Source: an uncultured bacterium (lineage in GTDB: Bacteria; Verrucomicrobiota; Verrucomicrobiia; CAIQCK01). From it: a stretch of DNA of 64,000 bases. The position numbers and the translations under genes were made by a program. Of this stretch, positions 4,376-57,192 are shown one piece after another. Location: contig CAIQCK010000103.1 of NCBI GenBank assembly GCA_903870275.1, positions 3,819 through 67,818 of the forward strand, given 5' to 3'. How positions within the stretch are numbered: the first letter of the stretch is position 1; each line of letters opens with the position of its first letter. The notes below the pieces were generated by a model. That model was not told the DNA's origin, did no database searches, and saw nothing but the letters and a program-made list of their open reading frames with translations.

Positions 4376-4395
4376 CTTCGTCCATGTGTTTTTTA

Positions 4396-4490
4396 GTCGC
4401 CGACGTGTAGCCACCGACGCGTAGCCGCCGACGTGAGGAGGCGGAAAGGTCGTGACTGAAAAACATTCGCCTCCTTACGTCGGCGGCTAC
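4396..4490. repeat. REP-like palindromic element in mutS leader (imperfect 23-bp inverted repeat plus partial direct copy)
   Basis: Arms GTAGCCGCCGACGTGAGGAGGCG (4421-4443) and CGCCTCCTTACGTCGGCGGCTAC (4468-4490) are reverse complements (1 mismatch) around a 24-nt loop. A partial direct copy gtgtagccaccgacgc precedes at 4406-4421. A near-identical arm recurs at 27010-27033. Confidence 0.5.
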
Positions 4491-4574
4491 GGTTCGTCCT
4501 CGTCTCGTGCTACGCGTGAAAAAACGGGGCCAGTCAAAAATCCGTGTTCCATCCGTGTTCCATCCGTGGCTAAT

Positions 4575-7142
4575 ATGCCGCCAGTGACAACGACACCTGA
4601 TCCCAGCCTGACGCCCATGATGCAGCAGTATCGCCGCATCAAGCGGGAAATCCCCGCCGACGCGCTGCTCTTGTTCCGGCTGGGCGATTTTTACGAGATG
4701 TTTTTCGACGACGCAAAGTCCGGCGCGCAGACGCTCAACCTCACCCTCACCCACCGCAACCACGTCCCGATGTGCGGCATCCCGCATCACGCCGCCGAGG
4801 GCTACATCAGCCGCCTCCTGCGCGCGGGCCGCAAGGTCGCCATCTGCGACCAGATGGAGGAGCCGCGCCCCGGCCAGCTCGTGAAACGCGAGATTTCCCA
4901 AATCCTCAGTCCCGGCGCGCACTTCGACGGCCGGATGCTCGACGCCTCCCGCAACAACTACCTCGCCGCGCTCAGCACCGACGGCAAACGCTTCGGCTTC
5001 GCCCTCGTGGACCTGACCACCGGCGACTTCAGGCTGACGGAGCTGGACTCCGCCGAATTGCTCGCGCACGAACTGACGCGCACGCGGCCCGCGGAGGTCG
5101 TCGCGCCGGCGGCCAAGGTCGAGGAGTTGTCGAAGCTGCTGACCGATTCCCGCGTGATGATCACCGGCCACGAGGACTGGGTGTTCGAAAACCAGACGGC
5201 GTTCTTCACGCTGCGCGACCATTTCAAGACGCAATCGCTCGACGGCTTCGGCTGCGCGGGGATGACGCTCGGCATCGGCGCGGGCGGCGCGGCGCTCTAC
5301 TATCTCCAGAACGTCCTCCGCCGAAACGTCAGCCACATCCGCCGCCTGCAAGTGTATCAAACCGCTGAGTTCCTGGTGCTCGACTCGATCTCGCAGCGGA
5401 ACCTCGAACTGGTCGAGCCGCTCCGCCCCGACGCGCCAAAGAACTCCACGCTCTTCGCCGCGCTCAACCGCACCGCCACAGCGATGGGCGCGCGGCTGTT
5501 GCGTGAGTGGATCACGCATCCGTTGCGCAACGCCGAGGCCATCCGCGCGCGGCAAAAGGTGGTCTTCGAGTTCCACGACATGACCGACGTGCTCGCGGAC
5601 TTTCGCGACCAGCTCAGCCTCGTGCGCGACCTGGAGCGAACGCTCGCCCGGCTCACCGCCGGCAGCGGCAACGCTCGCGACCTGCTCGGCCTGAAGGAAT
5701 CGCTCGCCGCCCTGCCCCTCTTGAAGAGCATCGTCGAGCCGCTCGCCTCGCCGCTGGCGCTGACGTTGCGCGGCTCCATCATCGAACTGCCCGACACGTG
5801 CGACCTTGTCCAACGCGCCATCACCGACGAGCCGCCGTTTACGCTCAGCGACGGCGGCGTCATCCGCGAAGGCTTCAGCCCGGAGCTGGACGAAATCCGC
5901 CGCGCGTCCAAGGAGGGCAAGGAGTGGATCGCCAAGCTCCAGCAGGACGAGATCGAGCGCACCGGCATTTCGTCGCTGAAGGTCCGCTACAACTCCGTCT
6001 TCGGCTACTTCATCGAGGTCACCAAGTCCAACCTCGCCAAGGTTCCCGACAACTACACCCGCAAACAGACCGTCGCCACCGGCGAGCGGTTCATCACGCC
6101 GGAGTTGAAGGAGGTCGAGGGCAAAATCCTCGGCGCGGACGAGCGCGCGGCGAAGCTGGAGGTGGAGTTGTTCCATCAGGTCCGCGCGAAGGTGCTGGAG
6201 CAGACCGCCGCCATCCAACAGACCGCCTCGGCCGTCGCCCACCTCGACGTGCTGGCCGGCTTCGCCGAACTGGCGCGGCACCAGAACTACCATTGTCCGG
6301 AGGTCAACGAGGAGGCGCGCATCGAGATCCGCGACGGCCGCCATCCGGTCGTCGAGCAGCTCATGACCGAAGAGCGGTTCGTGCCCAACGACACCGTCAT
6401 GAACGGCTCCGAGGCGCGCGTGCTGGTCATCACCGGCCCGAACATGGCCGGCAAGAGCACCTACATCCGGCAGGTGGCGCTCTTGGTGCTCATGGCGCAG
6501 ATCGGCTCGTGGATTCCCGCTGCCAAGGCCACCGTCGGCATCGTGGACCGCATCTTCACCCGCGTCGGCGCCAGCGACGACCTCGTGCGCGGCCAGAGCA
6601 CGTTCATGGTGGAGATGAACGAGACCGCCAACATCCTCAACAACGCCACCGCCAAGAGCCTCGTCATCCTCGACGAGATCGGCCGCGGCACCAGCACGTT
6701 CGACGGCCTCTCCATCGCGTGGTCGGTCGCCGAGCACCTGCACAACGAGGTCAAGGCCAAGACGCTCTTCGCCACGCACTATCACGAGCTGACCGAACTG
6801 GCCCGCACCTGTTCCGCCGTCAAGAACTACAACGTCGCCGTCCGCGAGTGGAGCGACCAGATCATCTTCATCCGCAAGATCGTCGAGGGCGGCACCGACA
6901 AGAGCTACGGCATCCACGTCGCCCGCCTCGCCGGCCTCCCCCGCCCCGTCATCGAGCGCGCCAAGGAAATCCTCCGCAACCTCGAGGAGAGCGAACTGAC
7001 CCCCGAAGGCCAGCCCAAGATCGCCCAGCACGAGCACGGCCGGGGGAAAGCCGGAACGCGAAAGGCGAAAGGCGGAACCAAGCCCGCCAAAGTCAGCGAG
7101 CCGCCCCCGCAGATGTTTTTGTTCGGGGATAAGGTGAAATGA
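4575..7142 (+). CDS. mutS: DNA mismatch repair protein MutS
   Basis: Conserved N-terminal mismatch-binding region (TPMMQQYRRIKRE...GDFYEMFFDDA), Walker A GPNMAGKSTYIRQVAL, and STF.VEM / DE.GRGTST / TH(Y)HEL motifs. Start set at ATG 4575 (MPPVTTTP...); the upstream part of the track ORF covers the palindromic repeat. Confidence 0.95.
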   Translation: MPPVTTTPDPSLTPMMQQYRRIKREIPADALLLFRLGDFYEMFFDDAKSGAQTLNLTLTHRNHVPMCGIPHHAAEGYISRLLRAGRKVAICDQMEEPRPGQLVKREISQILSPGAHFDGRMLDASRNNYLAALSTDGKRFGFALVDLTTGDFRLTELDSAELLAHELTRTRPAEVVAPAAKVEELSKLLTDSRVMITGHEDWVFENQTAFFTLRDHFKTQSLDGFGCAGMTLGIGAGGAALYYLQNVLRRNVSHIRRLQVYQTAEFLVLDSISQRNLELVEPLRPDAPKNSTLFAALNRTATAMGARLLREWITHPLRNAEAIRARQKVVFEFHDMTDVLADFRDQLSLVRDLERTLARLTAGSGNARDLLGLKESLAALPLLKSIVEPLASPLALTLRGSIIELPDTCDLVQRAITDEPPFTLSDGGVIREGFSPELDEIRRASKEGKEWIAKLQQDEIERTGISSLKVRYNSVFGYFIEVTKSNLAKVPDNYTRKQTVATGERFITPELKEVEGKILGADERAAKLEVELFHQVRAKVLEQTAAIQQTASAVAHLDVLAGFAELARHQNYHCPEVNEEARIEIRDGRHPVVEQLMTEERFVPNDTVMNGSEARVLVITGPNMAGKSTYIRQVALLVLMAQIGSWIPAAKATVGIVDRIFTRVGASDDLVRGQSTFMVEMNETANILNNATAKSLVILDEIGRGTSTFDGLSIAWSVAEHLHNEVKAKTLFATHYHELTELARTCSAVKNYNVAVREWSDQIIFIRKIVEGGTDKSYGIHVARLAGLPRPVIERAKEILRNLEESELTPEGQPKIAQHEHGRGKAGTRKAKGGTKPAKVSEPPPQMFLFGDKVK

Positions 7143-9405: not shown

Positions 9406-9504
9406 ACGCTGGCGACAGATTTACCCGGCGCTGATAGAAATCTCTGCAAAAGCCGTTGTCCACACTGTAGCGGCGGTCCCATGAAAATAATAGCAAGTTT
9501 CTCT

Positions 9505-22717: not shown

Positions 22718-22912
22718 ATGAAAACGACCGACAGCTACAAGGCCAAATTGGATATCTGGGCGCGGGAGCACCAGCCATGCCCACAGCCGAAGATCGCCAA
22801 TCTTCCGCGCTTTGGTTCCAAGAAGTTCAACTCCTACGCCGAGCTGAACGCGTGGAAGAAACAGCTGCTCGAAACGCTGGCCAGCCGCGGCGGAGCGCGA
22901 TGGACGACGTAA
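22718..22912 (+). CDS. small hypothetical protein (64 aa)
   Basis: ATG 22718 (MKTTDSYKAKLDIWAREH...). Overlaps the next gene by 13 nt. No recognisable domain; coding status uncertain. Confidence 0.35.
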   Translation: MKTTDSYKAKLDIWAREHQPCPQPKIANLPRFGSKKFNSYAELNAWKKQLLETLASRGGARWTT

Positions 22913-23349
22913 TCCGCCTATTCAACCGGCATCGCGTGCGCTACTTGCTGATCGGAGGGCAGGCTGTGCGATTGGAGGGCATGCCGCGCTTCACCATGGA
23001 CTGGGATTTTTATGTTCCTGCGCGTGATGCGGTGAACATTGAAAAGATCAACCGTCTGTTGGCCGACGAACTGGACGCTCCATTGCTCCCGCTCGGCCCG
23101 CACGGCGAGAATTTTGTGCAAACCTATCAGACTCGCTGGGGAATCATCCAATTCCACCTCGGCGGTGTTGGACTTCCGGCTTTCGATAAAGCTGAAAAGC
23201 AAACCGTGGTTCATGTCACCGAAACCGGCGCCCGCGCGCGCTGCATGTGCACCAAGGACTTGATTGCGAGCAAGAAGCGCGCCGGACGCCCGCAGGACTT
23301 GCTCGACGTGGAGTTCTTGAAAAGAAAAACGGCGGCGAGTTCCTCTTAA
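22900..23349 (+). CDS. minimal nucleotidyltransferase (Pol-beta superfamily, MNT-like)
   Basis: hGGxAxxxxGxxRxTxDhDh motif (LLIGGQAVRLEGMPRFTMDWDFYV). C-terminal KKRAGRPQDLLDVEFL resembles the conserved AGR.KDL.D tail of MNT/DUF6036-type proteins. Start ATG 22900. Confidence 0.6.
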   Translation: MDDVIRLFNRHRVRYLLIGGQAVRLEGMPRFTMDWDFYVPARDAVNIEKINRLLADELDAPLLPLGPHGENFVQTYQTRWGIIQFHLGGVGLPAFDKAEKQTVVHVTETGARARCMCTKDLIASKKRAGRPQDLLDVEFLKRKTAASSS

Positions 23350-24581: not shown

Positions 24582-25829
<1,248 letters not shown>

Positions 25830-25958
25830 GCGCCTTCCCGGGAGCGCGGGCATCCTGCCCCCCGACGTTCACGCGCAGGCGCAGCCAGTTAGAAGGCGGT
25901 TGATGGAACCGTCTCTGTTGCGACCACTTTTTTTATCCATACTTTATTCGAACGCAGC

Positions 25959-26792
25959 ATGCAATTTACCATCGTCACACCCAGCTTCAGGAATTCTTCC
26001 TGGCTTAAGCTGTGCATCGCCTCGGTGGCCGACCAGGGTGTGGAGGCGGAACACATCGTCCAGGACTCCTGCTCCGATGACGGCACGCAGGACTGGCTGC
26101 CGCACGACTCCCGCGTCATCTCCGTCATCGAAAAGGACACGGGCATGTATGACGCGGTCAACCGCGGATTCCGCCGCGCACGGGGGGAATTGCTGGCCTA
26201 TCTCAACTGCGACGAACAATACCTTCCCGACGCTTTGCGCAAGGTAAGCCGTTTCTTTGACCAGCATCCCGGCGTGGACGTGATTTTCGGCGACACCGTG
26301 ATCGTCGGCCCCCAGGGCGAATACATCTGCGAGCGCCGCGCGCTCCTGCCCCATCGCCTCCATACCCTCATCAGCATGAACCTGAGTTTCCTCACGGCCG
26401 CCACCTTCATGCGGCGGCGGGTTTTTCATGAACTCGGACTCCACTTCGATCCAAGCCTGCGTGACGTGGGCGACGCCGAATGGACACTCCGTTTGCTCAA
26501 GGCTGGAGTGCGCATGGCGACGATGAAAGAATTGACCAGCGCGTATACGGAGACAGGAACCAACATGAGCCTCGGCCCGAATATGGCTCGCGAACGGGCT
26601 GTCTTCGCCCAAACCGCCCCGCTGTGGGCGCGCACACTGGCCCCGTTCCTCGTGGCCTATTTCCGGTCCCGCCGATGGCGCGCGGGGCATTACCGCTGCC
26701 AACCGCATTCGTATGTCATCTACACCAAGGACGGCCCCAACGAGCGAAAGCTCTTCCAAGCGAACCAGCCGACCTTCCGATGGTCGCGGTGA
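25959..26792 (+). CDS. family 2 glycosyltransferase
   Basis: FTIVTPSFRNSSWL...DSCSDDGT...YLNCDEQYLPD (DxD-like) typical GT2 GT-A fold; 277 aa. Confidence 0.8.
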   Translation: MQFTIVTPSFRNSSWLKLCIASVADQGVEAEHIVQDSCSDDGTQDWLPHDSRVISVIEKDTGMYDAVNRGFRRARGELLAYLNCDEQYLPDALRKVSRFFDQHPGVDVIFGDTVIVGPQGEYICERRALLPHRLHTLISMNLSFLTAATFMRRRVFHELGLHFDPSLRDVGDAEWTLRLLKAGVRMATMKELTSAYTETGTNMSLGPNMARERAVFAQTAPLWARTLAPFLVAYFRSRRWRAGHYRCQPHSYVIYTKDGPNERKLFQANQPTFRWSR

Positions 26793-26843
26793 CCCGTCAG
26801 AAATCACGACGAAGCACGCAACCCTTGATATGACCGCCCTTCT

Positions 26844-26888
26844 TCGCTGTAGCGGCGGTCTCCAACCACCGAGCTGTTCATTATCAAC
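26844..26888. repeat. short repeat (half copy of hairpin element CTGTAGCGGCGGTCTCC...TTCAT(T/C)ATCAAC)
   Basis: Matches 27058-27105 (left arm plus loop of the hairpin element below). A third copy of the core CTGTAGCGGCGGTC is at 9465-9478. Confidence 0.5.
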
Positions 26889-27000
26889 CTCAACTACACG
26901 CCCAACACCGCGCGCGAGTCGAAAGTGGACGCCATCCTCAACAACGCCCCCGGCTTTGGCGGCCACAACTGTTCCCTCGTCGCCAAGCGGTTCGTGTAGG
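26888..27000 (+). pseudogene. diverged duplicate of the fabF 3' end (last about 37 codons plus stop)
   Basis: About 95% identical (6 mismatches over about 112 bp) to 25718-25829. Retains frame and a TAG stop ([36 protein letters not shown]) but has no 5' part. Confidence 0.6.
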
Positions 27001-27057
27001 CAGACGCCTGTAGCCGCCGACGTAAGGAGGCGGTCATGTTCGCATCCTCGATCTTTC

Positions 27058-27130
27058 CGCTGTAGCGGCGGTCTCCGACCGCCGAAATGTTCATCATCAA
27101 CAACCGGCGGTCAGAGACCGCCGCTACAGC
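27058..27130. repeat. palindromic hairpin element (17-bp perfect stem GCTGTAGCGGCGGTCTC / GAGACCGCCGCTACAGC, extendable to about 27 bp)
   Basis: Arms at 27059-27075 and 27114-27130. Preceded by a REP-like arm CTGTAGCCGCCGACGTAAGGAGGCGG (27008-27033) shared with the mutS leader element. Confidence 0.5.
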
Positions 27131-27199
27131 CACCGCTTGTCCGCGTGACTTCCCCCGCCCCTTCTGGTAGAAACGCCGCCAAGGAGAGCGGCAGAGACG

Positions 27200-29605
27200 A
27201 TGAAGAAGTGGCTGAAGATTCTGTCTGTGGTATTGCTCGGGGCTCTAATGGCAACGGGCGCGTTCTTCGTCGCCAAACCGGCAAGGATGCCGGTGTTCCA
27301 ATCAACTTCTGTTTTCCGGCATTATCACACTTTGTGCGTGCCTTACCGCCGACCACCGGCGCTTGATGCGGCCGAAGCAACCCCCATATTGGAACACGCC
27401 ATCCAGCGAATCCGCCAGCGCCTCTTTAAAGCCCGCAATCGTTTGCCGGCACTGTCGGAAATAGACAAAGCAACAATCAAGGGATGTGACTTCACATATC
27501 GGAAAGGAGACGTCTCCCGCGATGAGACAGGCAAGCGGGTTTTTGATCCGCCGGATTCCTGCTACTTGTCCCTGCATGCCGAATATCCGTTCTGGGAATC
27601 AATGATGCTGTCAGTTGTTCCAAAGGAGTATTCAGTGTATGGGGATTGTTTTGCTGTCTACGCATCGGTAACTACGGAAACCGGTCAGTCCGAGATTTAC
27701 AAAATAATTCAGCAGGAAATGGACCGTGCAGTTGAAGAACTCCAAACGGCGGTCCGGTCCAAAATGCTCAAGGCAGGGGAAGGAATCTTTCTGGCCGTCA
27801 GAACCAGCGACGCCGCAAAGGTGGAGCAGTTCCTGGCCCGCAAACCCGAGTTGGCCAATGCCAAAGACACCCATGGGCTTGCGCCGCTTCATTGGGCACA
27901 AGACACGCGCGTTGCGGAGTTGTTGCTGGCGAAGAAAGCCGATGTTACCGCCAAAGACAACTTCGGTCTCACGCCCCTGCACTGGGCGGTCTATAATGGC
28001 CGCTTCGAACTCGTAAAACTGCTCGTCGCCAACAGGGCCGACATCAACGCCAAAACCACCGATGGCTGGACTCCCACGGACCTCGCCGAGGAACTGTACG
28101 GTGAAGCCGGGAAAGCAACGTCTTTTCTTCTCCAGCACGGCGGAATTCCTGGCCTGCCCGACGCAAGATTGATGGTAGTTCTTAGATGGCTCGACAAAAC
28201 GCACTTGAAGCGAGCGCTGCAAATGAAACCTAATTTCGTTGCCCTGAAGGACGAACAGGGGCGCACCGCACTGCATCACGCAGTTTTATCTCGCAACAGA
28301 GAAGCGGTGGAACTGCTTTTGAACGCCGGCGCGGATCCCAACATCAAGGACAATTATGGAAACACGGCAATATTGACGCCAAATGTCATGGTTGATCCAA
28401 AACTGCTGGAACTGCTGCTGACTCACAAGGCCGACCTCAACGTCATGGACGAGAAAGGCCGGACGCCTCTCGACCGTGCACTACTGGATCATGCATCAGA
28501 AATCGTCGCTCTTCTTCGCAAATACGGCGCCCAGAGAGGAGTAGAACCCCTTCGCAATACCATAATGCAACAAGACATGGGCGAACTGAAAGTATTGCTG
28601 TCATCCCAAACGGTTGACGTCAATAAGAAGGACCGTTATGGCAGTTATCCCGTTCATCTTGCGGTGTTTTACAAAAACATCGAAATGCTGAAGCTGTTGC
28701 TGGATCACAACGCTGATCCCAATGTCAGGGACAAAGAAGGTTATACATTGTTCCAAGTGTTCCTCGGATCCAAAGAAATGATGGCTTTGCTGATCGCCCA
28801 CGGAGCCGATGTTAACGCCAGAGACGGGTGGGGTGCCACGGCGCTTCATCATGCAGTCGGACTTATCAACAACAAGGAAGCCGTAGAGTTCCTCATTGCC
28901 AACAAGGCCGACGTCAACGCTGAAGACAAGAATGGCTGCACACCTTTGGATCGCGCATTTCGGCACAGCTCTAACCCGCATCACAGAATTGTGATTGATC
29001 TTCTTCGAGAGCACGGTGGCATATTCAAGAAATACCAGAAAGAAGCCAGCATCATGGAGTCACACCTCAAGAGACGGCAGTACATAATGGCTGGGATGCC
29101 TCTCTTTCCATACGGTTTAACAAACATAATTATTCGCCCGTTGCCGATAGTCCGCAAAAAAACATCGCTTACTCCTATTCAGGATATGGAGTTGCGGAAC
29201 ATGCCGGATGTGAAGGCCGCCAGCGAAGCACTGTCGGAAACTGGCAAAAAGTCTGCCAACGTGAGAAGAGCGACAATGTCCAAACTGGGATATCACATTG
29301 AGTCTCGCACTAATGGCACGTCGAATGTCGGGACAAGCGTATTCCGTGGGTGGTTTACTGCCGATGGGGAGCGGGTGACGACCAAGCAATTGACGGAATT
29401 CGACGATTTGCCGGACGTGAAGGCCAGTCGTGAAGCCACTGCACAAGCTGGCATGCTATACTGGGCAGTGAGGAGAGCAGCAACGACCACGCTTGTTAAT
29501 CAGACAGGTTATGGCACCAATCGCGCATCATCGGCGATTCAAGCACCGCCGGCGGGATCGGGCACGAATGGAGCGGTGCAGGTGAAGGGGAATGTGATGC
29601 GATGA
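27200..29605 (+). CDS. ankyrin-repeat protein with N-terminal signal peptide/TM and unknown N- and C-terminal domains (low-GC gene)
   Basis: 801 aa. About 10 or more ankyrin repeats (G.TPLHWA..NG....V.LLL..GAD.N). N-terminal hydrophobic segment (ILSVVLLGALMATGAFFVA). C-terminal region has an internal duplication (MPDVKAASEA / LPDVKASREA). GC visibly lower (about 50%). Confidence 0.85.
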   Translation: MKKWLKILSVVLLGALMATGAFFVAKPARMPVFQSTSVFRHYHTLCVPYRRPPALDAAEATPILEHAIQRIRQRLFKARNRLPALSEIDKATIKGCDFTYRKGDVSRDETGKRVFDPPDSCYLSLHAEYPFWESMMLSVVPKEYSVYGDCFAVYASVTTETGQSEIYKIIQQEMDRAVEELQTAVRSKMLKAGEGIFLAVRTSDAAKVEQFLARKPELANAKDTHGLAPLHWAQDTRVAELLLAKKADVTAKDNFGLTPLHWAVYNGRFELVKLLVANRADINAKTTDGWTPTDLAEELYGEAGKATSFLLQHGGIPGLPDARLMVVLRWLDKTHLKRALQMKPNFVALKDEQGRTALHHAVLSRNREAVELLLNAGADPNIKDNYGNTAILTPNVMVDPKLLELLLTHKADLNVMDEKGRTPLDRALLDHASEIVALLRKYGAQRGVEPLRNTIMQQDMGELKVLLSSQTVDVNKKDRYGSYPVHLAVFYKNIEMLKLLLDHNADPNVRDKEGYTLFQVFLGSKEMMALLIAHGADVNARDGWGATALHHAVGLINNKEAVEFLIANKADVNAEDKNGCTPLDRAFRHSSNPHHRIVIDLLREHGGIFKKYQKEASIMESHLKRRQYIMAGMPLFPYGLTNIIIRPLPIVRKKTSLTPIQDMELRNMPDVKAASEALSETGKKSANVRRATMSKLGYHIESRTNGTSNVGTSVFRGWFTADGERVTTKQLTEFDDLPDVKASREATAQAGMLYWAVRRAATTTLVNQTGYGTNRASSAIQAPPAGSGTNGAVQVKGNVMR

Positions 29606-29654: not shown

Positions 29655-30734
29655 TTAACTCTTCACTTTCCTTCCCGCCAGCTCCTCGTAGAGATCCTCC
29701 AGCCGCCGGGCCATCCGGTCGAGGCTGAAGCTCTCCACCACGTGCGCGCGGGCGGCGTCGGCGAGACGTTGCGCCAGAGCCCGGTCGCGCAACAGCCGCG
29801 CCACGGCCTCCGCCAGCGCCCCCACGTCGCCCGATTGCACCACAAGGCCGTCGCGCTCGTGCGTGACGATCTCGCGCAGACCGTCCACGTTCGTCACGAC
29901 CACCGGCCGCGCCATCGCCATCGCCTCCAGCACGGCCAGCCCCAATCCCTCCCACAAGGCCGGCAGCACCACCACCGCCGCCCGTGCCAGCACCGGCTGC
30001 ACGTCCGGCACCGTGCCGAGGAAGTTGACGCGGCTGCCGATCCCAAGCTGCCCGGCGCGTGTTTGCAGTTCATCTCGCAGCATGCCGCCGCCGGCCAGTT
30101 CGAGCCGCAGGTCGGGAAACTCGCTCAACAACCGCCGCATGGCCTCCAGCAGGATGCGGTGGCCCTTCTGCTGGGTGAAGTTGGCCACGCAGACGACCGG
30201 CCCGGCCGCCGGCAGCGGTTGCGGCGCGAATTTTCCGCAATCCACGCCGTTGTGAATCACCTCCAGCCGGCGCGCGTGCCGATACTCCGCCGCCACCGCG
30301 CTCGACACCGCCACGACCGCGTCCACGCGCCGCTCCACCCAGCGCCCCACCGGCCGCAGCCGGCGGTCATGCCGGTCGTAATAGCGGACATTGTGCTTGG
30401 TGGAGACAATCGCCCGCGTCCACGCCAGCCGCCCCGCCGCATAACCCAGAATGTCCGCCTGGATCAGATGCGTGTGCAGGACCTCGATCCGCTCCCGCTT
30501 CAGCAACTGCGCCAGCCGCCACGCCGGCCAGGGGTCGAACTTCTGTGTCGAGCGCAGATGGTGAACGCGGATGCCGGCCCGCTCCAGTTCCGCCGCCAGC
30601 GGCGCGTCGCCGTGAAGATAAGCCACCTGCGGCTCGACCTTGGTGCGGTCAAGGCGTGGCAGCACCGTCGTCAACAGGCGCTCGGCGCCACCGACGTTCA
30701 GCTCGGTAATAAAATTCAAGACGCGGCAAGGCAT
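29655..30734 (-). CDS. family 4 glycosyltransferase (GT-B, glycosyl transferase group 1)
   Basis: N-terminal NFITELNVGGAERL and C-terminal E..G....EAMA.G.PVV.T..GG..E motif (GLGLAVLEAMAMARPVVVTNVDGLREIV). Start ATG 30732-30734. Confidence 0.85.
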   Translation of the reverse strand: MPCRVLNFITELNVGGAERLLTTVLPRLDRTKVEPQVAYLHGDAPLAAELERAGIRVHHLRSTQKFDPWPAWRLAQLLKRERIEVLHTHLIQADILGYAAGRLAWTRAIVSTKHNVRYYDRHDRRLRPVGRWVERRVDAVVAVSSAVAAEYRHARRLEVIHNGVDCGKFAPQPLPAAGPVVCVANFTQQKGHRILLEAMRRLLSEFPDLRLELAGGGMLRDELQTRAGQLGIGSRVNFLGTVPDVQPVLARAAVVVLPALWEGLGLAVLEAMAMARPVVVTNVDGLREIVTHERDGLVVQSGDVGALAEAVARLLRDRALAQRLADAARAHVVESFSLDRMARRLEDLYEELAGRKVKS

Positions 30735-31864
30735 TGGTTGATTTCCTGAATCACGCGGTCCACGTCGAGTTGCCGCATGCAGCGGTGTTGAAAGTCGCAA
30801 CGCATCGGCGGGACGGCGGCGCAGTGTTGCTCATTTTCGGCGGCGGAACAAGCCAACATTGTCCACACCACGCGCTCGTTGGGCCAGCGCGGCAGGAAGC
30901 GCGGGTTTGTCGGCCCGTAGATTGCCACCGTCGGCACGCCGAGGCTCGCAACAATGTGCGTCAGTCCCGTGTCGAGTCCGACATAAACGCGGCAGCCGCG
31001 CGCCAGCGCCGCCACCTGGCGCACCGTCAGGTTGACGATCTCCGCCGGGTCGGACGGTCCGCCGACGAGCGCCACGCGCAAACTGCGCGCCCGGAAATGT
31101 CCGGCGACGGCGCGAAAATTCTCCACCGGCCAGAGCTTCAGCGGAAACCCCGCGCCAACGTGCAGGAGGATGTCGTACGCCGGGGGCGCAGCCGTCCCGC
31201 CCGCCGAAAGGGTGAAGTATACCCCTCTCGTAGACGATACCGGATTTGCCCCCCACCCTTGTCCCAAGGGTGGAACGCCGACACTCCCGGCAATTTCATT
31301 CTCGAGATAAATCGCCGGCATCTGGCCGCCCGCGTCCGCGCCGGCCAGTGCCGCCACCGCGTTGTATTTTTCCACCAACGGAATTTGGGAAACCGGCCGC
31401 AGTTCGCGGTCGAACACAAAACCCAATCCCGACCGCGAAAATCCGACGCTCCAACGCGGCCGGGCCAGCGCCGCCAGCGCGCAACTCGCCGGCACGCCGG
31501 TGAAATCCACGAGCAAGTCGCAACCGCGCAGCCGTCGCGCCAGCGCGAACAGTCCGCGCCAATCCGTGCGCGGCTCGCGGGTCCGGTCGTTGCAAAGCCC
31601 GTCGAAGCAAATGATCTCGCGCAGATGCGGATTACCAAGCAGCGCTTCGCGGGCGCGCGATTTGACGACGGCGTCCATGACGGCGTTTGGAAAGCGGCGT
31701 TTGAGCACGGCGATGGCCGGCGTGGCCAAGAACACATCGCCGAGATAATGGAAATGCAGGATGCCAATGCGGCGGACGTTTTCCGGTGTCGGCGCGCGAC
31801 GACCGCGCCGCCGCCACAGCGCGGCGCCGGCGGCGTGAAAGAGACCGGCCAGCAAACGTTTCAT
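30716..31864 (-). CDS. family 9 glycosyltransferase (ADP-heptose:LPS heptosyltransferase-like)
   Basis: RIGILHFHYLGDVFLATPAIAVLKRRFP (GT9 N-terminal signature) and C-terminal VGLDTGLTHIVASLGVPTVAIYGPTNP. Start ATG 31862-31864; the upstream extension of the track ORF runs through the tRNA. Confidence 0.8.
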   Translation of the reverse strand: MKRLLAGLFHAAGAALWRRRGRRAPTPENVRRIGILHFHYLGDVFLATPAIAVLKRRFPNAVMDAVVKSRAREALLGNPHLREIICFDGLCNDRTREPRTDWRGLFALARRLRGCDLLVDFTGVPASCALAALARPRWSVGFSRSGLGFVFDRELRPVSQIPLVEKYNAVAALAGADAGGQMPAIYLENEIAGSVGVPPLGQGWGANPVSSTRGVYFTLSAGGTAAPPAYDILLHVGAGFPLKLWPVENFRAVAGHFRARSLRVALVGGPSDPAEIVNLTVRQVAALARGCRVYVGLDTGLTHIVASLGVPTVAIYGPTNPRFLPRWPNERVVWTMLACSAAENEQHCAAVPPMRCDFQHRCMRQLDVDRVIQEINQCLAAS

Positions 31865-31897
31865 GACGGCTGCAGACTTCACCGCTCGGATGGAAAA

Positions 31898-31972
31898 TGG
31901 TGGGCGCTGTTGGGATTGAACCAACGACCCCTTGCGTGTGAAGCAAGTGCTCTCCCACTGAGCTAAGCGCCC
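31898..31972 (-). tRNA. tRNA-Val (anticodon CAC), CCA encoded
   Basis: Reverse complement GGGCGCTTAGCTCAGTGGGAGAGCACTTGCTTCACACGCAAGGGGTCGTTGGTTCAATCCCAACAGCGCCCACCA folds as a cloverleaf. Acceptor GGGCGCT/AGCGCCC, D-arm GCTC-AGTGGGA-GAGC, anticodon stem CTTGC/GCAAG with loop TTCACAC, T-arm GTTGG-TTCAATC-CCAAC. Confidence 0.85.
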
Positions 31973-32105
31973 AACCGAGGGCCGAAATTTATAATGCAGC
32001 GCGGCGGCGGTTTCAACCGGTAATTTCAACAACGTTTGGAATGGGGGCACATCGCGCTTCACCGACCGCCCTGAAAAGGCGGCGGGCAGCTCATCGGTTT
32101 TCGAT

Positions 32106-33254
32106 TCAGACCGCCGGCAGCGTGAACCAGAACGTGCTGCCCTTGCCGACTTCGCTTTCCACACCGATCTGGCCGCCGTGCGCTTCGATGGCGAGTTTGC
32201 TGAACACCAGCCCCATGCCGACGGTGTATTGACGCAAGTTCTGTTCAACCACGCCGTATTTTTCGAAGATTTTCCCGCGAGATTCGGGGCGAATCCCCGA
32301 TCCCGTGTCGGTCACCGCCACGCGCGCCATGGCATGGTGCCGGCTCACGGTGACACGGATCCGGCCGTTGTCGGGAGACGCCTTGATGGCATTGCCAACC
32401 AGAGCGGCCAGCACCCGTTGAATGATCTCCTTGTCGGCGTTGGCCACGACCGGCTCCAGTTGCAATTCGACGCTCAGAAAACGCTCTTCCACCAGGGAGC
32501 CGATGGATTCCATGACCGCCTGCATCAAGACCGCGAGGTCGTAAGCCTGCCGGTTCAAAGGCAGTTCACCCGCCTCCAGGCGGCTGGCATCCACCAGCGA
32601 GGCAATCATGCCGACCAGCCTCTCCGTGTTCTGACGAATGCTGTCGAAATACCGCACCTCGGTGCTGGTGAGTTTTCCGGCGGTCTTCGCCTTGAGCAGG
32701 TCCAGATAACCCATCATCGCCGCGATCGGCGAGCGCAAATCGTGCGCGATCATATGAACCAGATTGTCGCGGAAGATTTCGAGGTCGCGGAGGTGAGTGT
32801 AGCTCATCTGCAGCTGCTGGTTTTGCTGCTCCAGATTTTCTTGATAGCAGCGGTTGGCTTCCGTCAGGCGCGCGCGCTCGTCTTCGGACGCCTTCAGCCT
32901 GACGGCGTTGCCCACGCAACGCAGGATCGTCTCCTTGGAAATCGGCTTGACGAGGTAGTCGAACGCGCCGGCCCGCACGGCGGCGGCGGCCGTTTCCACG
33001 GCGGGCTGGCCCGTGATCATGATGACCTGAATGCGCGGCGATTCTTTGTGAATGGCTTGCAGGAGTTCCACGCCCGTGATGCGGGGCATCACGATGTCGG
33101 ACACCACCACGTCATAGTTTTTGGACGGGAGCCGTTGCAGCACCGCGACGGTTGCATCCTCCGCTGTTTCCACTTCGTATCCCGCATCCCGCAGAAACTC
33201 TTGCAGCGTCAGGCGGATGCTTTTTTCGTCGTCCACAATCAATATGCGAGCCAT
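32106..33254 (-). CDS. hybrid response-regulator receiver / histidine kinase (REC-HisKA-HATPase)
   Basis: N-terminal REC (ILIVDDE...DVVVSDIVMP...LVKP), H-box MIAHDLRSPIAAM, C-terminal ATPase G-boxes (VTDTGSGI...GMGLVFSKLAIEAHGG). Confidence 0.85.
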   Translation of the reverse strand: MARILIVDDEKSIRLTLQEFLRDAGYEVETAEDATVAVLQRLPSKNYDVVVSDIVMPRITGVELLQAIHKESPRIQVIMITGQPAVETAAAAVRAGAFDYLVKPISKETILRCVGNAVRLKASEDERARLTEANRCYQENLEQQNQQLQMSYTHLRDLEIFRDNLVHMIAHDLRSPIAAMMGYLDLLKAKTAGKLTSTEVRYFDSIRQNTERLVGMIASLVDASRLEAGELPLNRQAYDLAVLMQAVMESIGSLVEERFLSVELQLEPVVANADKEIIQRVLAALVGNAIKASPDNGRIRVTVSRHHAMARVAVTDTGSGIRPESRGKIFEKYGVVEQNLRQYTVGMGLVFSKLAIEAHGGQIGVESEVGKGSTFWFTLPAV

Positions 33255-55719: not shown

Positions 55720-57192
55720 TTATGGCGTCGGTTCGGGCGGATCTGGTTTCTTGGTCTTCGGCGCCGGCGACACGGGGGCGGACCCGACAGCAGGCTTGCG
55801 CAGTTTGTTCAGCGCCTCGGCGGCAAAGTGGCGCACGTCCCGATCTGTATCAATCAAGCAGGCGGTCAGTGGGTTGATGGCTCGCGTGTCCCCCAGCCTG
55901 CCCAGCGCCCAAGCGGCTTGGCAGCGGACCTGCTGATTCTTATCGTTCAAGCAAGCGATCAGCAGATCAACGGCTCGCTTGTCACCCAGCTTGCCCAACG
56001 CCCAAGCAGCTAGCCAGCGGACCTGCTGATTCTGGTCTTTCAAGCAAATGATCAGCGGCTCGACGGCTCGCTTGTCCCCCAGCTTGCCTAGGGACTCGGC
56101 AGAGTTACTGCGCACCGACCACGCTTCATCTTTCAGGCAGGCGATCAACGGTTCAACGGCCCGCACATCCCCCAAATCGCCCAACGCCGCGGCGGCAGGC
56201 CAAGACAGACGATTGTCCCGGTCTTGGTCCGTCAAGCAGGCGATCAGCGGCTCCAAAGCCCGCTTGTCCCCCACGTGGCCCAGCGCATGGGCGGCTATTC
56301 TGCGCACGACCCAATCCTGGTCTTTCAAGCAGGCGATCAACGGCTCGACGGCCCGTTCGTTCCCCGGTTTGCCCAGCGCCATGGCGGCATGCCAGCGCAT
56401 GACCTTGTCCTCATCCTTCAAACAGGCGATCAGATGCTCAACGGCTCGCACATCCTCCAGTTTGCCCAGGACCGAGATGGCGCCCCAGCGCATGTTCTCA
56501 TCTGGACCTTTCGAGCAGACAATGAGCGGCTCGACGACTGGCTTGCCCAGCTTGCCCAGCGCCTTGGCGGCGCCTGATCTCACACTCCGATCTTGATCTT
56601 TCAAACAGCCGATCAGCGGCTCGACGGCTGGTTTGCCCAACTTGCCCAGCGCCTCGGCGGTATGGTAGACTACATACAGTTCCTGATTCTTCATCAACTT
56701 CAAGCAGGCGATCAGCGGCTCGACGGCCCGCGCGTCTCCGAGTTTGCCCAGTGCCTCGGCGGCGACCCACCGCAGATTCTGATTCTGATCCTTCAAGCAA
56801 GCGATCAGAGGCTCAACGGCTTGTGCGTCTCCGAGTTTGCCCAACGCCTCGCCGGCGGCCCTGAACACCCTGTATTCTTGATCCTTCAGGCAGGCGATCA
56901 ACGGCTCAACTGCCCGCTTGTCCCCCAGTTTGCCCAGCGCCACAGCCGCACCCGCGCGCACACGCAAATCCGAATCCTTCAAGCAGGCGATCAACGGCCC
57001 GATGGCCCGCTTGTCGCCCAGGTCGCCCAGCGCATAAACCGCACTCTCGCGTCCAAAAAAGCCAAGCGGATCATTCAACTCGTTGATTCGTTCTTGAACG
57101 GTGTCGGTCGTTCCCACCGCCCCGGCCGCCGCAAGACTCATGCAAAGCGTTATTGAACGAATCAACGCCACGACAAAAGGCTTCACGTTCAT
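55720..57192 (-). CDS. HEAT-repeat (PBS-lyase type) protein, about 14 tandem repeats
   Basis: Signal peptide; repeat unit about 31 aa LGDKRAVEPLIACLKDQ...VR..AA.AL repeated throughout; 490 aa. Confidence 0.85.
   Translation of the reverse strand: MNVKPFVVALIRSITLCMSLAAAGAVGTTDTVQERINELNDPLGFFGRESAVYALGDLGDKRAIGPLIACLKDSDLRVRAGAAVALGKLGDKRAVEPLIACLKDQEYRVFRAAGEALGKLGDAQAVEPLIACLKDQNQNLRWVAAEALGKLGDARAVEPLIACLKLMKNQELYVVYHTAEALGKLGKPAVEPLIGCLKDQDRSVRSGAAKALGKLGKPVVEPLIVCSKGPDENMRWGAISVLGKLEDVRAVEHLIACLKDEDKVMRWHAAMALGKPGNERAVEPLIACLKDQDWVVRRIAAHALGHVGDKRALEPLIACLTDQDRDNRLSWPAAAALGDLGDVRAVEPLIACLKDEAWSVRSNSAESLGKLGDKRAVEPLIICLKDQNQQVRWLAAWALGKLGDKRAVDLLIACLNDKNQQVRCQAAWALGRLGDTRAINPLTACLIDTDRDVRHFAAEALNKLRKPAVGSAPVSPAPKTKKPDPPEPTP

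Follow-up and report, generated by a model that had tools for sequence, protein, structure and literature searches.

In the 64,000-nucleotide stretch of an uncultured verrucomicrobial genome analyzed here (contig CAIQCK010000103.1, positions 3,819 to 67,818; hereafter the window), the genes fabG-acpP-fabF are followed by a gene for a family 2 glycosyltransferase (GT2) and, behind this gene, by a second copy of the 3' end of fabF. The two copies, here termed H1 (the end of the intact gene) and H2 (the displaced copy), begin 1170 nt apart and are identical in 109 of 115 nucleotides (94.8%). Reading frame and stop codon are kept in both, the stop being TAA in H1 and TAG in H2, and a 31-mer taken from the repeat occurs exactly twice in the window and in none of 100 shuffles. 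The segment between the repeats spans 1,055 nt (25832-26886), and the GT2 gene is its only substantial open reading frame (ORF) on the gene strand. The structure was recovered in independent assemblies and is therefore no assembly artefact: two ENA assemblies made separately, ERZ27313164 (L001/L003/L004) and ERZ27245625 (L005), agree at 100% over 1,801 nt that include the feature, and the Logan contigs of four other runs (L002, L006-L008) match at 100% over the 199-1,197 nt that they cover. The arrangement is real and fixed in this population. One of the Logan contigs, L002 (1,197 nt), has overlapping ends and was considered as a possible circle; this was rejected, since its ends at 25720 and 26916 are those expected from breaks in a k=31 assembly graph, which has to break there because the repeat begins with 47 identical nucleotides. 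The features of the locus are listed in the table.

Table. Features of the fabF-GT2 locus, in window coordinates.
Feature	Position	Strand	Remarks
fabF (beta-ketoacyl-ACP synthase II; ACP, acyl carrier protein)	24582..25829	+	intact, 415 aa; last gene of fabG-acpP-fabF; PF00109 and PF02801
H1, functional fabF 3' end, first repeat copy	25717..25831	+	codons 380-415 and TAA, with 2 nt on each side
C motif, REP-like (repetitive extragenic palindromic) hairpin just past the fabF stop	25831..25868	+	GGAG-GCGGGCA-TCC-TGCCCCC; orthologous to the post-fabF sequence of L091 and L133
Lineage-specific DNA upstream of GT2	25869..25958	+	AT-rich just ahead of the ATG; first part of the segment that relatives lack
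GT2 glycosyltransferase gene	25959..26792	+	277 aa; at this site only in the window lineage
Spacer between GT2 and REP singlet, lineage-specific	26793..26844	+	no significant match to relatives
A_L1, one A-type GTAG REP unit with doublet spacer	26845..26888	+	ends within the spacer
Novel joint	26886..26889	.	REP-doublet spacer ...TTATCAAC fused to fabF codon 379/380 CTCAACTAC; breakpoint ambiguous within the shared AC
H2, displaced, non-functional copy of the fabF 3' end	26887..27001	+	no upstream gene; TAG stop
Z2, left arm of a B-type GTAG REP doublet (27010-27032) with spacer	27002..27057	+	right arm missing
A doublet, two inverted A-type GTAG REPs	27058..27130	.	20 nt between the units; REPIN/BIME-like hairpin
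Conserved leader of the ankyrin-repeat gene (CTTCTGGTAGAAACGCCGCCA...)	27131..27199	+	conserved in L091, L093 and L099
Ankyrin-repeat protein gene (ank)	27200..29605	+	neighbour of fabF in GT2-less relatives

Palindromic repeats and the novel joint

H2 is set among palindromic repeats of the types A and B, while a third type, C, follows H1. The complete A doublet downstream of H2 (hairpin 27059-27130) has arms of 26 nt which are 96% complementary, and it folds as DNA with -35.3 kcal/mol (z=-11.4); each arm is itself a palindrome of the form CGGCGGTC-nnn-GACCGCCG, with TGTAG before it. A_L1, which directly precedes H2, is 89% identical to the corresponding part of this doublet (27058-27101, here A_L2), 5 of 44 positions being different. 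It has lost two stem G residues (G to A) that are kept in A_L2 and in the related contig L093, and it yields no stable fold, so this orphaned REP half appears to be decaying, as does H2 (see below). The B arm behind H2 has exactly the sequence of one arm (4468-4490) of the complete B doublet found elsewhere in the window, a hairpin at 4415-4496 with a spacer of 24 nt (folded over 4400-4500: -34.8 kcal/mol, z=-6.6). The layout given in the preliminary description was confirmed at the stated coordinates, that is, a fabF end repeated at about 95% with frame and stop preserved, a GT2 segment of 1.06 kb bracketed by the copies, a half-copy and a full copy of a strong hairpin on either side of the second copy, and a REP-like arm following the latter; its term "nested" is likewise apt, as each hairpin arm is a small palindrome in its own right.

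Between A_L1 and H2 lies the sole junction of the locus that has no counterpart in any relative. It reads ...GTTCATTATCAAC joined to CTCAACTACACG...: its left side is the spacer of an A doublet, which in the intact copy continues with AACCGGCGG, and its right side is fabF from codon 379/380, which in the gene is preceded by GAGTGCGAC. The parental sequences share only AC at the breakpoint, a microhomology of 2 nt. Because the second breakpoint lies in the coding sequence of fabF with so little microhomology, the joint is an illegitimate join, one partner of which is located in the loop of a very stable hairpin (-35 kcal/mol). It did not arise by homologous recombination between REPs, and it lacks all signs of a classical transposase.

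Both A and B are imperfect palindromes of 24-26 nt following GTAG, which occur between genes as inverted doublets (with spacers of 20-24 nt) or as singlets and recur in other contigs; inverted doublets are also present in L117, L103 and L113, and a B doublet resides in the related contig L133 at 4813-4884. TGTAG precedes the stem in two copies of the window (the arms of the A doublet) and in 42 copies from other contigs; because the pattern used for the search already contained the tag, these 44 are informative only as to where it stands with respect to the stem. A_L1 (26846-26871) and the B arms, however, begin with GTAG without being forced to do so by the pattern, and the motif GTAGCSGCSG, made up of tag and stem, occurs nine times in 64 kb as compared to 0.57 expected occurrences. 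The 24-nt A core was found in 30 unrelated IMG/VR contigs, with up to six copies per contig, often as inverted pairs in which the loop alone varies. An unpaired GTAG tetranucleotide at one end is a trait of GTAG-tagged REPs, which have already been described in Verrucomicrobia (PMC3733652). These features strongly suggest that A and B are GTAG-tagged REP elements, and that their inverted doublets correspond to REPINs (REP doublets forming hairpins) or BIMEs (bacterial interspersed mosaic elements). The C motif is probably a REP-type hairpin as well, with GGAG as its tag; its return stem TGCCCCC is one mismatch away from the perfect TGCCCGC of L091 and L133, and within the window and the fetched loci it occurs at this position only.

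Further copies and variants were noted in passing. Three tandem 14-nt partial copies of the GTAG-proximal part (GTAGYCRCCGACGY) precede the complete B doublet (window 4390-4496), and a truncated A-type remnant, CTGTAGCGGCGGTCC without the returning stem, is located at 9464-9480. The 30 IMG/VR contigs with the exact A core TGTAGCGGCGGTCTnnGACCGCCG (L100-L129) are classed as viral, and several of them have 5-6 copies; they may represent prophages of bacteria of the Planctomycetes-Verrucomicrobia-Chlamydiae superphylum or regions derived from the host. Beside the A core they contain a sister REP family in which the stem co-varies (CGGCGCTC...GAGCGCCG). Two weak similarities were dismissed, as they score at background level and are explained by the stem motif GGCGGTC: a hairpin at 25894-25914, considered as a right arm of A, and an inverted 9-mer shared by 26830-26838 and 27029-27037. 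A search of the palindromes against Rfam returned only sub-threshold hairpin matches (miRNA precursors, isrG).

The site in related genomes

The site was compared with that of contigs L091/L092 and L093/L099, which represent three congeneric genomes of two species (FabF 92% at the amino acid level), and with that of L133 (FabF 95%), the closest relative found, which is 92.5% identical in nucleotides over fabG-acpP-fabF and the upstream intergenic DNA. In L091/L092 and L093/L099 the genes are ordered exbB-exbD-exbD-fabG-acpP-fabF-ank, followed by glycosyltransferase genes of families 4 and 9 (GT4, GT9) and a sensor kinase gene, which is the order of the window without GT2. In L093/L099, 16 nt separate the fabF stop (TAG) from the A doublet, behind which the conserved ank leader is found; doublet and leader are equivalent to window 27058-27199. 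L091 has the stop TAA and next to it the C motif, and a hairpin of another type stands between this motif and the ank leader, which is the same. In L133, fabF ends with TAG and a complete B doublet comes next; after 16 nt the C motif follows, and a noncoding, repeat-rich stretch of about 940 nt separates it from an A doublet. The genes are kept up to fabF, there is no GT2, and permissive tblastn and blastn searches of the noncoding stretch gave noise and no remnant of the gene. This stretch (4930-5870) has a GC content of 0.53 and contains several copies of short repeats of the types CATTTGGSTTCGTTT and GGTCGGAT; further downstream, the gene order no longer agrees with that of the window (DUF4190, MutS). 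L095 and L096, in which FabF is 78-79% identical, have unrelated genes downstream and no GT2 after fabF. A FabF scan of species-representative genomes yielded, among the matches listed, relatives of at most 67% identity that have kept fabG-acpP-fabF and not the downstream genes, and these were set aside as uninformative for the site. A scan of JGI metagenomes with the ank leader returned only the L091 contig again, the L093-like L099 and a chance match, L098.

Accordingly, the segment consisting of GT2 and its flanks (about 25869-26844) is present at this site in the window lineage alone, and its upstream part (25869-25958) has no significant match in the intergenic regions of L091, L093 or L133. 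The nearest homologues of the GT2 protein are 68-70% identical and reside in four different gene neighbourhoods, none of them beside fabF. As the relatives lack GT2 here and its homologues are this distant and located elsewhere, the most parsimonious reading of the comparison is that the window lineage gained GT2 here. The sequences on the outer sides of this segment do have counterparts. The C motif behind H1 (25831-25868) matches L091 9256-9293 in 33 of 38 positions and L133 4901-4928 in 25 of 28. H2 together with its 3' flank aligns to L133 4692-4863 with 86.6% identity over 172 nt, through the fabF end, the B left arm and the B spacer, and past the latter the flank continues, like that of L093, with the A doublet and the ank leader; the interval 27002-27057 is matched in L133, but not directly in L093. 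The flanks suggest that H2 is a displaced fabF end of the native type which is no longer part of a gene. It had been expected that relatives would be devoid of GT2 and that in them fabF would lead directly into the sequence from 27001 onwards; GT2 is indeed absent from L091/L092, L093/L099 and L133, but no single relative shows the direct run.

The differences between the two copies are informative as to their history. The codons AAA and TGT are common to H1 and H2 and are absent from all five relatives compared, which argues that both copies stem from the window lineage after its split from L133 and that neither was received from an L091-, L093- or L133-like donor. Otherwise, H1 deviates from the consensus of the relatives only synonymously (TCG, TTT), whereas H2 alone has Leu to Ser and Leu to Pro exchanges at sites where five relatives show no variation, as well as one synonymous change of its own; these exchanges are the two non-synonymous ones among the six differences between the copies. 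Since the private changes of H1 are all synonymous and H2 has acquired the two exchanges, H1 is under purifying selection while H2 is decaying. The REP content after fabF also differs among all four relatives with comparable intergenic sequence (L091, L093/L099, L133), and the elements are therefore active on this time scale.

The GT2 gene and neighbouring features

The GT2 protein matches PF00535 (Glycos_transf_2) with E=1.2e-16 and 61.5 bits (gathering cut-off 23.3). In NCBIfam no equivalog reaches its cut-off, matches to WcaE- and TuaG-like proteins being weak and far below it, and the best solved relatives are the unnamed glycosyltransferases 9omm and 9omh (E about 1e-19). It is an ordinary polysaccharide-type GT2 without an equivalog-level assignment, and its protein cluster comprises only this protein and one truncated form. 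Base composition was considered as a mark of foreign origin and rejected, as the GC content of GT2 (0.60-0.62) is to be set against 0.65-0.68 in fabF and a far lower value, about 0.50, in the ank gene. The interval between fabF and GT2 contains no consensus terminator, the sole weak terminator-like site being inside the fabF end at 25803-25820; a consensus promoter or terminator was also looked for in 25869-25958 and none was found, and in the promoter and terminator scan nothing exceeded the shuffled expectation. As GT2 is on the same strand directly downstream of fabG-acpP-fabF, and no consensus terminator intervenes, it may be co-transcribed with the fab genes. GT4 and GT9 (heptosyltransferase-like) genes are located nearby. 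In a further sample of the same population, ERZ1426818, GT2 appears as two called ORFs, one of 69 aa and one of 200 aa, and the longer of them is 100% identical to the window protein; this reflects either a disrupted gene or an assembly error; as it is called in these pieces, GT2 may be dispensable.

The neighbouring ank gene is highly variable among congeners, encoding 801 aa in the window as compared to 248 aa in L091 (9432-10178) and 446 aa in L093 (9407-10747). The proteins share 32-45% identity in local matches only, and the GC content of about 0.50 contrasts with 0.65-0.70 in the flanking genes; the start is conserved, including the leader and the first codons (MKKWLKIL or MKNWLKIL). Between exbD2 and fabG (22718-23349), the window has ORFs of 64 and 149 aa, the second with a weak match to the DUF6036 nucleotidyltransferases (E=5e-4). 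Both are absent from L091 and L133, where the intergenic region measures about 120 nt, and L093 has a third exbD instead; they form a second lineage-specific insertion beside the fab genes, possibly a toxin-antitoxin-like pair. A tRNA-Val(CAC) gene is located on the reverse strand between the GT9 gene and the sensor kinase genes (31898-31972). As the listed ORF 30716-32248 runs through this tRNA gene, it exceeds the true GT9 gene, which in L001 was called with 382 aa. Finally, about eleven periodic repeats of 93 nt with 61-74% identity at 55785-57045 probably encode HEAT- or ARM-like protein repeats.

Origin of the arrangement

With some reservation, we favour the hypothesis that the locus arose by one illegitimate (unequal) exchange between two fabF-ank alleles of the same lineage, one bearing GT2 and one lacking it. 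The first would have been ordered fabF(TAA)-C motif-GT2-A doublet and the second, as in the relatives, fabF(TAG)-B repeat-A doublet-ank. The incoming strand might have been anchored by one-sided homologous pairing, either in fabF or in the A doublet and ank, while its other end would have been joined without homology after a break or a replication stall in the loop of the A hairpin. The outcome would be a homology-facilitated illegitimate recombination or an unequal sister-strand exchange, by which the native-type fabF end (H2) would have been pushed downstream, would have lost its function and would then have decayed, and likewise the REP half A_L1. Two alleles are favoured because the stop codons differ and because two different native-type flanks follow the two stops, with the C motif behind H1, for which L091 and L133 are the counterparts, and the B, A and ank flank behind H2, for which L133 and L093 are. 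The earlier proposal that the locus is the scar of an insertion or recombination event which placed GT2 behind the fab operon is supported by the GT2-less relatives, the displaced fabF end and the illegitimate joint. Mediation by repeat elements, which had been proposed along with it, can be upheld only inasmuch as one breakpoint is located in the spacer of a REP doublet; the other is inside fabF with 2-nt microhomology, which is not the product of recombination between two REPs. The scar itself has no evident function.

Several points weigh against an exchange between two alleles. Neither a GT2-bearing allele with a complete A doublet nor a GT2-less allele of this lineage turned up in the collections searched, and for this reason the two alleles are a premise that we infer. 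L133 has B and C in series after one fabF, and an origin within a single genome is therefore possible. The 2-nt microhomology is no more than chance level. If the alleles had already diverged, the shared AAA and TGT codons require a very close donor or later gene conversion, and the product cannot tell the direction of the exchange, that is, whether a GT2 allele entered a GT2-less genome or the reverse.

The main rival, which we regard as possible but rather improbable, dispenses with the second allele and assumes a tandem duplication within one genome, followed by deletions. In an ancestor ordered fabF-B doublet-C motif-GT2-A doublet-ank, which would have acquired GT2 in an earlier, unrelated event, a replication stall at the A hairpin would have led to a template switch, with synthesis resumed at codon 379 of fabF, such that the whole interval was doubled; unit 1 would then have lost the B doublet, and unit 2 the part from the B right arm through the downstream spacer of GT2. 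The joint between A spacer and fabF is exactly that of a tandem duplication, and the two nested direct repeats (H1/H2 and A_L1/A_L2), the lineage-specific AAA and TGT in both H copies, the position of several breakpoints at REP boundaries and the order in L133, where one fabF is followed by B and then C and, at a distance of about 940 nt, by an A doublet, would all be accommodated. However, a simple duplication does not suffice, as the units are colinear only over H (115 nt) and A_L (44 nt) while their interiors of 1,013 and 56 nt are unrelated, and the full scheme takes three events; neither of the two deletions among them is bounded by repeats, and one ends 2 nt past the fabF stop. Moreover, the stop codons of the two copies differ, a genome with the full duplicated unit was not seen, and the 5 differences in 44 positions between A_L1 and A_L2 are uneven with the 3 private changes in 115 positions of H2 if both are of equal age, although the numbers are small. 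The differing flanks of H1 and H2 would also be expected from a donor and a recipient in a Campbell-type integration, in which a circle of 1,170 nt (H-C-GT2-A_L), equal in length to the repeat unit, would have been formed by illegitimate circularization in a GT2-bearing strain and would have entered a GT2-less genome by a single crossover in the 115-nt fabF segment. Such a crossover doubles the homology and yields exactly the order homology, insert, homology; nevertheless, we consider this route unlikely, since circle formation and integration make two steps where one unequal exchange would be enough, a segment of 115 nt is short for recombination, and the overlapping ends of L002, the sole hint of a circle, are fully accounted for by the graph break.

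A more far-reaching idea, to which we give very little credence, is that the REP system itself made the join, by a RAYT-type enzyme (REP-associated tyrosine transposase) or by hairpin processing that cut the doublet spacer and ligated it to fabF. If this were true, REP doublets would be able to pick up pieces of host genes, or cargo genes like GT2, and carry them to new sites. In a milder form, the 115-nt repeats would turn GT2 into a RecA-excisable on/off cassette for a surface glycan. Still less probable is the specific version in which the tyrosine transposase cuts single-stranded DNA at the A doublet and joins it to fabF, with GT2 or the fabF fragment as REP cargo. It would fit with the nature of A, B and probably C as REP-type hairpins tagged GTAG (or GGAG), with one breakpoint in a doublet spacer and others at REP boundaries, and with the variable REP content behind fabF in L091, L093/L099 and L133, which indicates active elements. 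On the other hand, the breakpoint on the fabF side has neither a REP nor GTAG, and left of GT2 there is no REP besides the conserved C motif. A RAYT gene is not known for this genome, for which only the 64-kb window was at hand and no search was aimed at Y1 transposases, and RAYTs are not known to move cargo genes. An integrase-borne island that targets the 3' end of fabF, of which the locus would be a remnant with H1 and H2 as attL and attR, appears the most improbable of all. Repeats that rebuild the 3' end of the target gene are typical of such islands, and frame and stop are kept in both copies; yet the 1,055 nt between the repeats encode no integrase, with GT2 as the only substantial ORF on the gene strand, and over about 20-33 kb none of the identified genes is one, the neighbours being fab, ank, GT4, GT9 and tRNA-Val. 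In addition, the presumed island side of H1 opens with the C motif, which is orthologous to chromosomal DNA of the relatives, and on its upstream side H2 borders on a REP spacer that is cut short, instead of island DNA. REPs as such are treated as non-autonomous elements (PMC3733652, PMC8266576).

The locus provides a base-by-base case of an accessory gene added right behind an essential operon with the operon undamaged, and of REP hairpins marking rearrangement breakpoints in a poorly studied phylum. Within the few hundred bases after fabF, four different REP arrangements are found across the window lineage and three alignable related species, which makes the site a convenient natural marker for REP turnover and strain-level recombination in Verrucomicrobiota. 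GTAG REPs, rearrangement joints associated with REPs and orphaned 3' gene ends are all known already. Hence, the locus is a well-resolved fresh example from an under-studied phylum and no pointer to a new mechanism or type of element.

With the genomic islands that insert at 3' ends of genes, the locus shares direct repeats (attL and attR in the islands) that flank extra DNA and leave the gene intact; it differs in the absence of an integrase, the tiny insert and the chromosomal origin of the flank. Tandem chromosomal duplications associated with REPs were reportedly described for enterobacteria by Shyamala et al. in 1990. There, too, the join point is at a REP element, but both partners are REPs that undergo homologous exchange, whereas here one partner is a REP spacer and the other coding sequence. 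At the effector-immunity loci of type VI secretion systems (T6SS) and at Rhs (rearrangement hotspot) and contact-dependent inhibition (CDI) loci, similarly, DNA is added by a conserved gene, the old 3' end is orphaned downstream and one joint is without homology (PMC5361080, PMC3240628), and the orphaned 3' gene fragments at T6SS and Rhs loci have been attributed to homology-facilitated illegitimate recombination upon module insertion (PMC5361080). Two hallmarks of this process are present here, as the insert is absent from close relatives at the site and one joint has microhomology only (AC). Unlike these orphans, H2 comprises 115 nt of a housekeeping gene, without an immunity-type gene or a sign of retaining selection, and the donor was apparently of the same lineage and not a foreign species; natural transformation is not known for the organism of the window. 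The repeats themselves closely resemble GTAG REPs, REPINs and BIMEs in their A and B palindromes, the GTAG tag, and the occurrence of inverted doublets and singlets between genes, and the locus departs from a normal REP insertion in that one doublet breaks off within its spacer, to which coding sequence is joined, and is thus a rearrangement scar.

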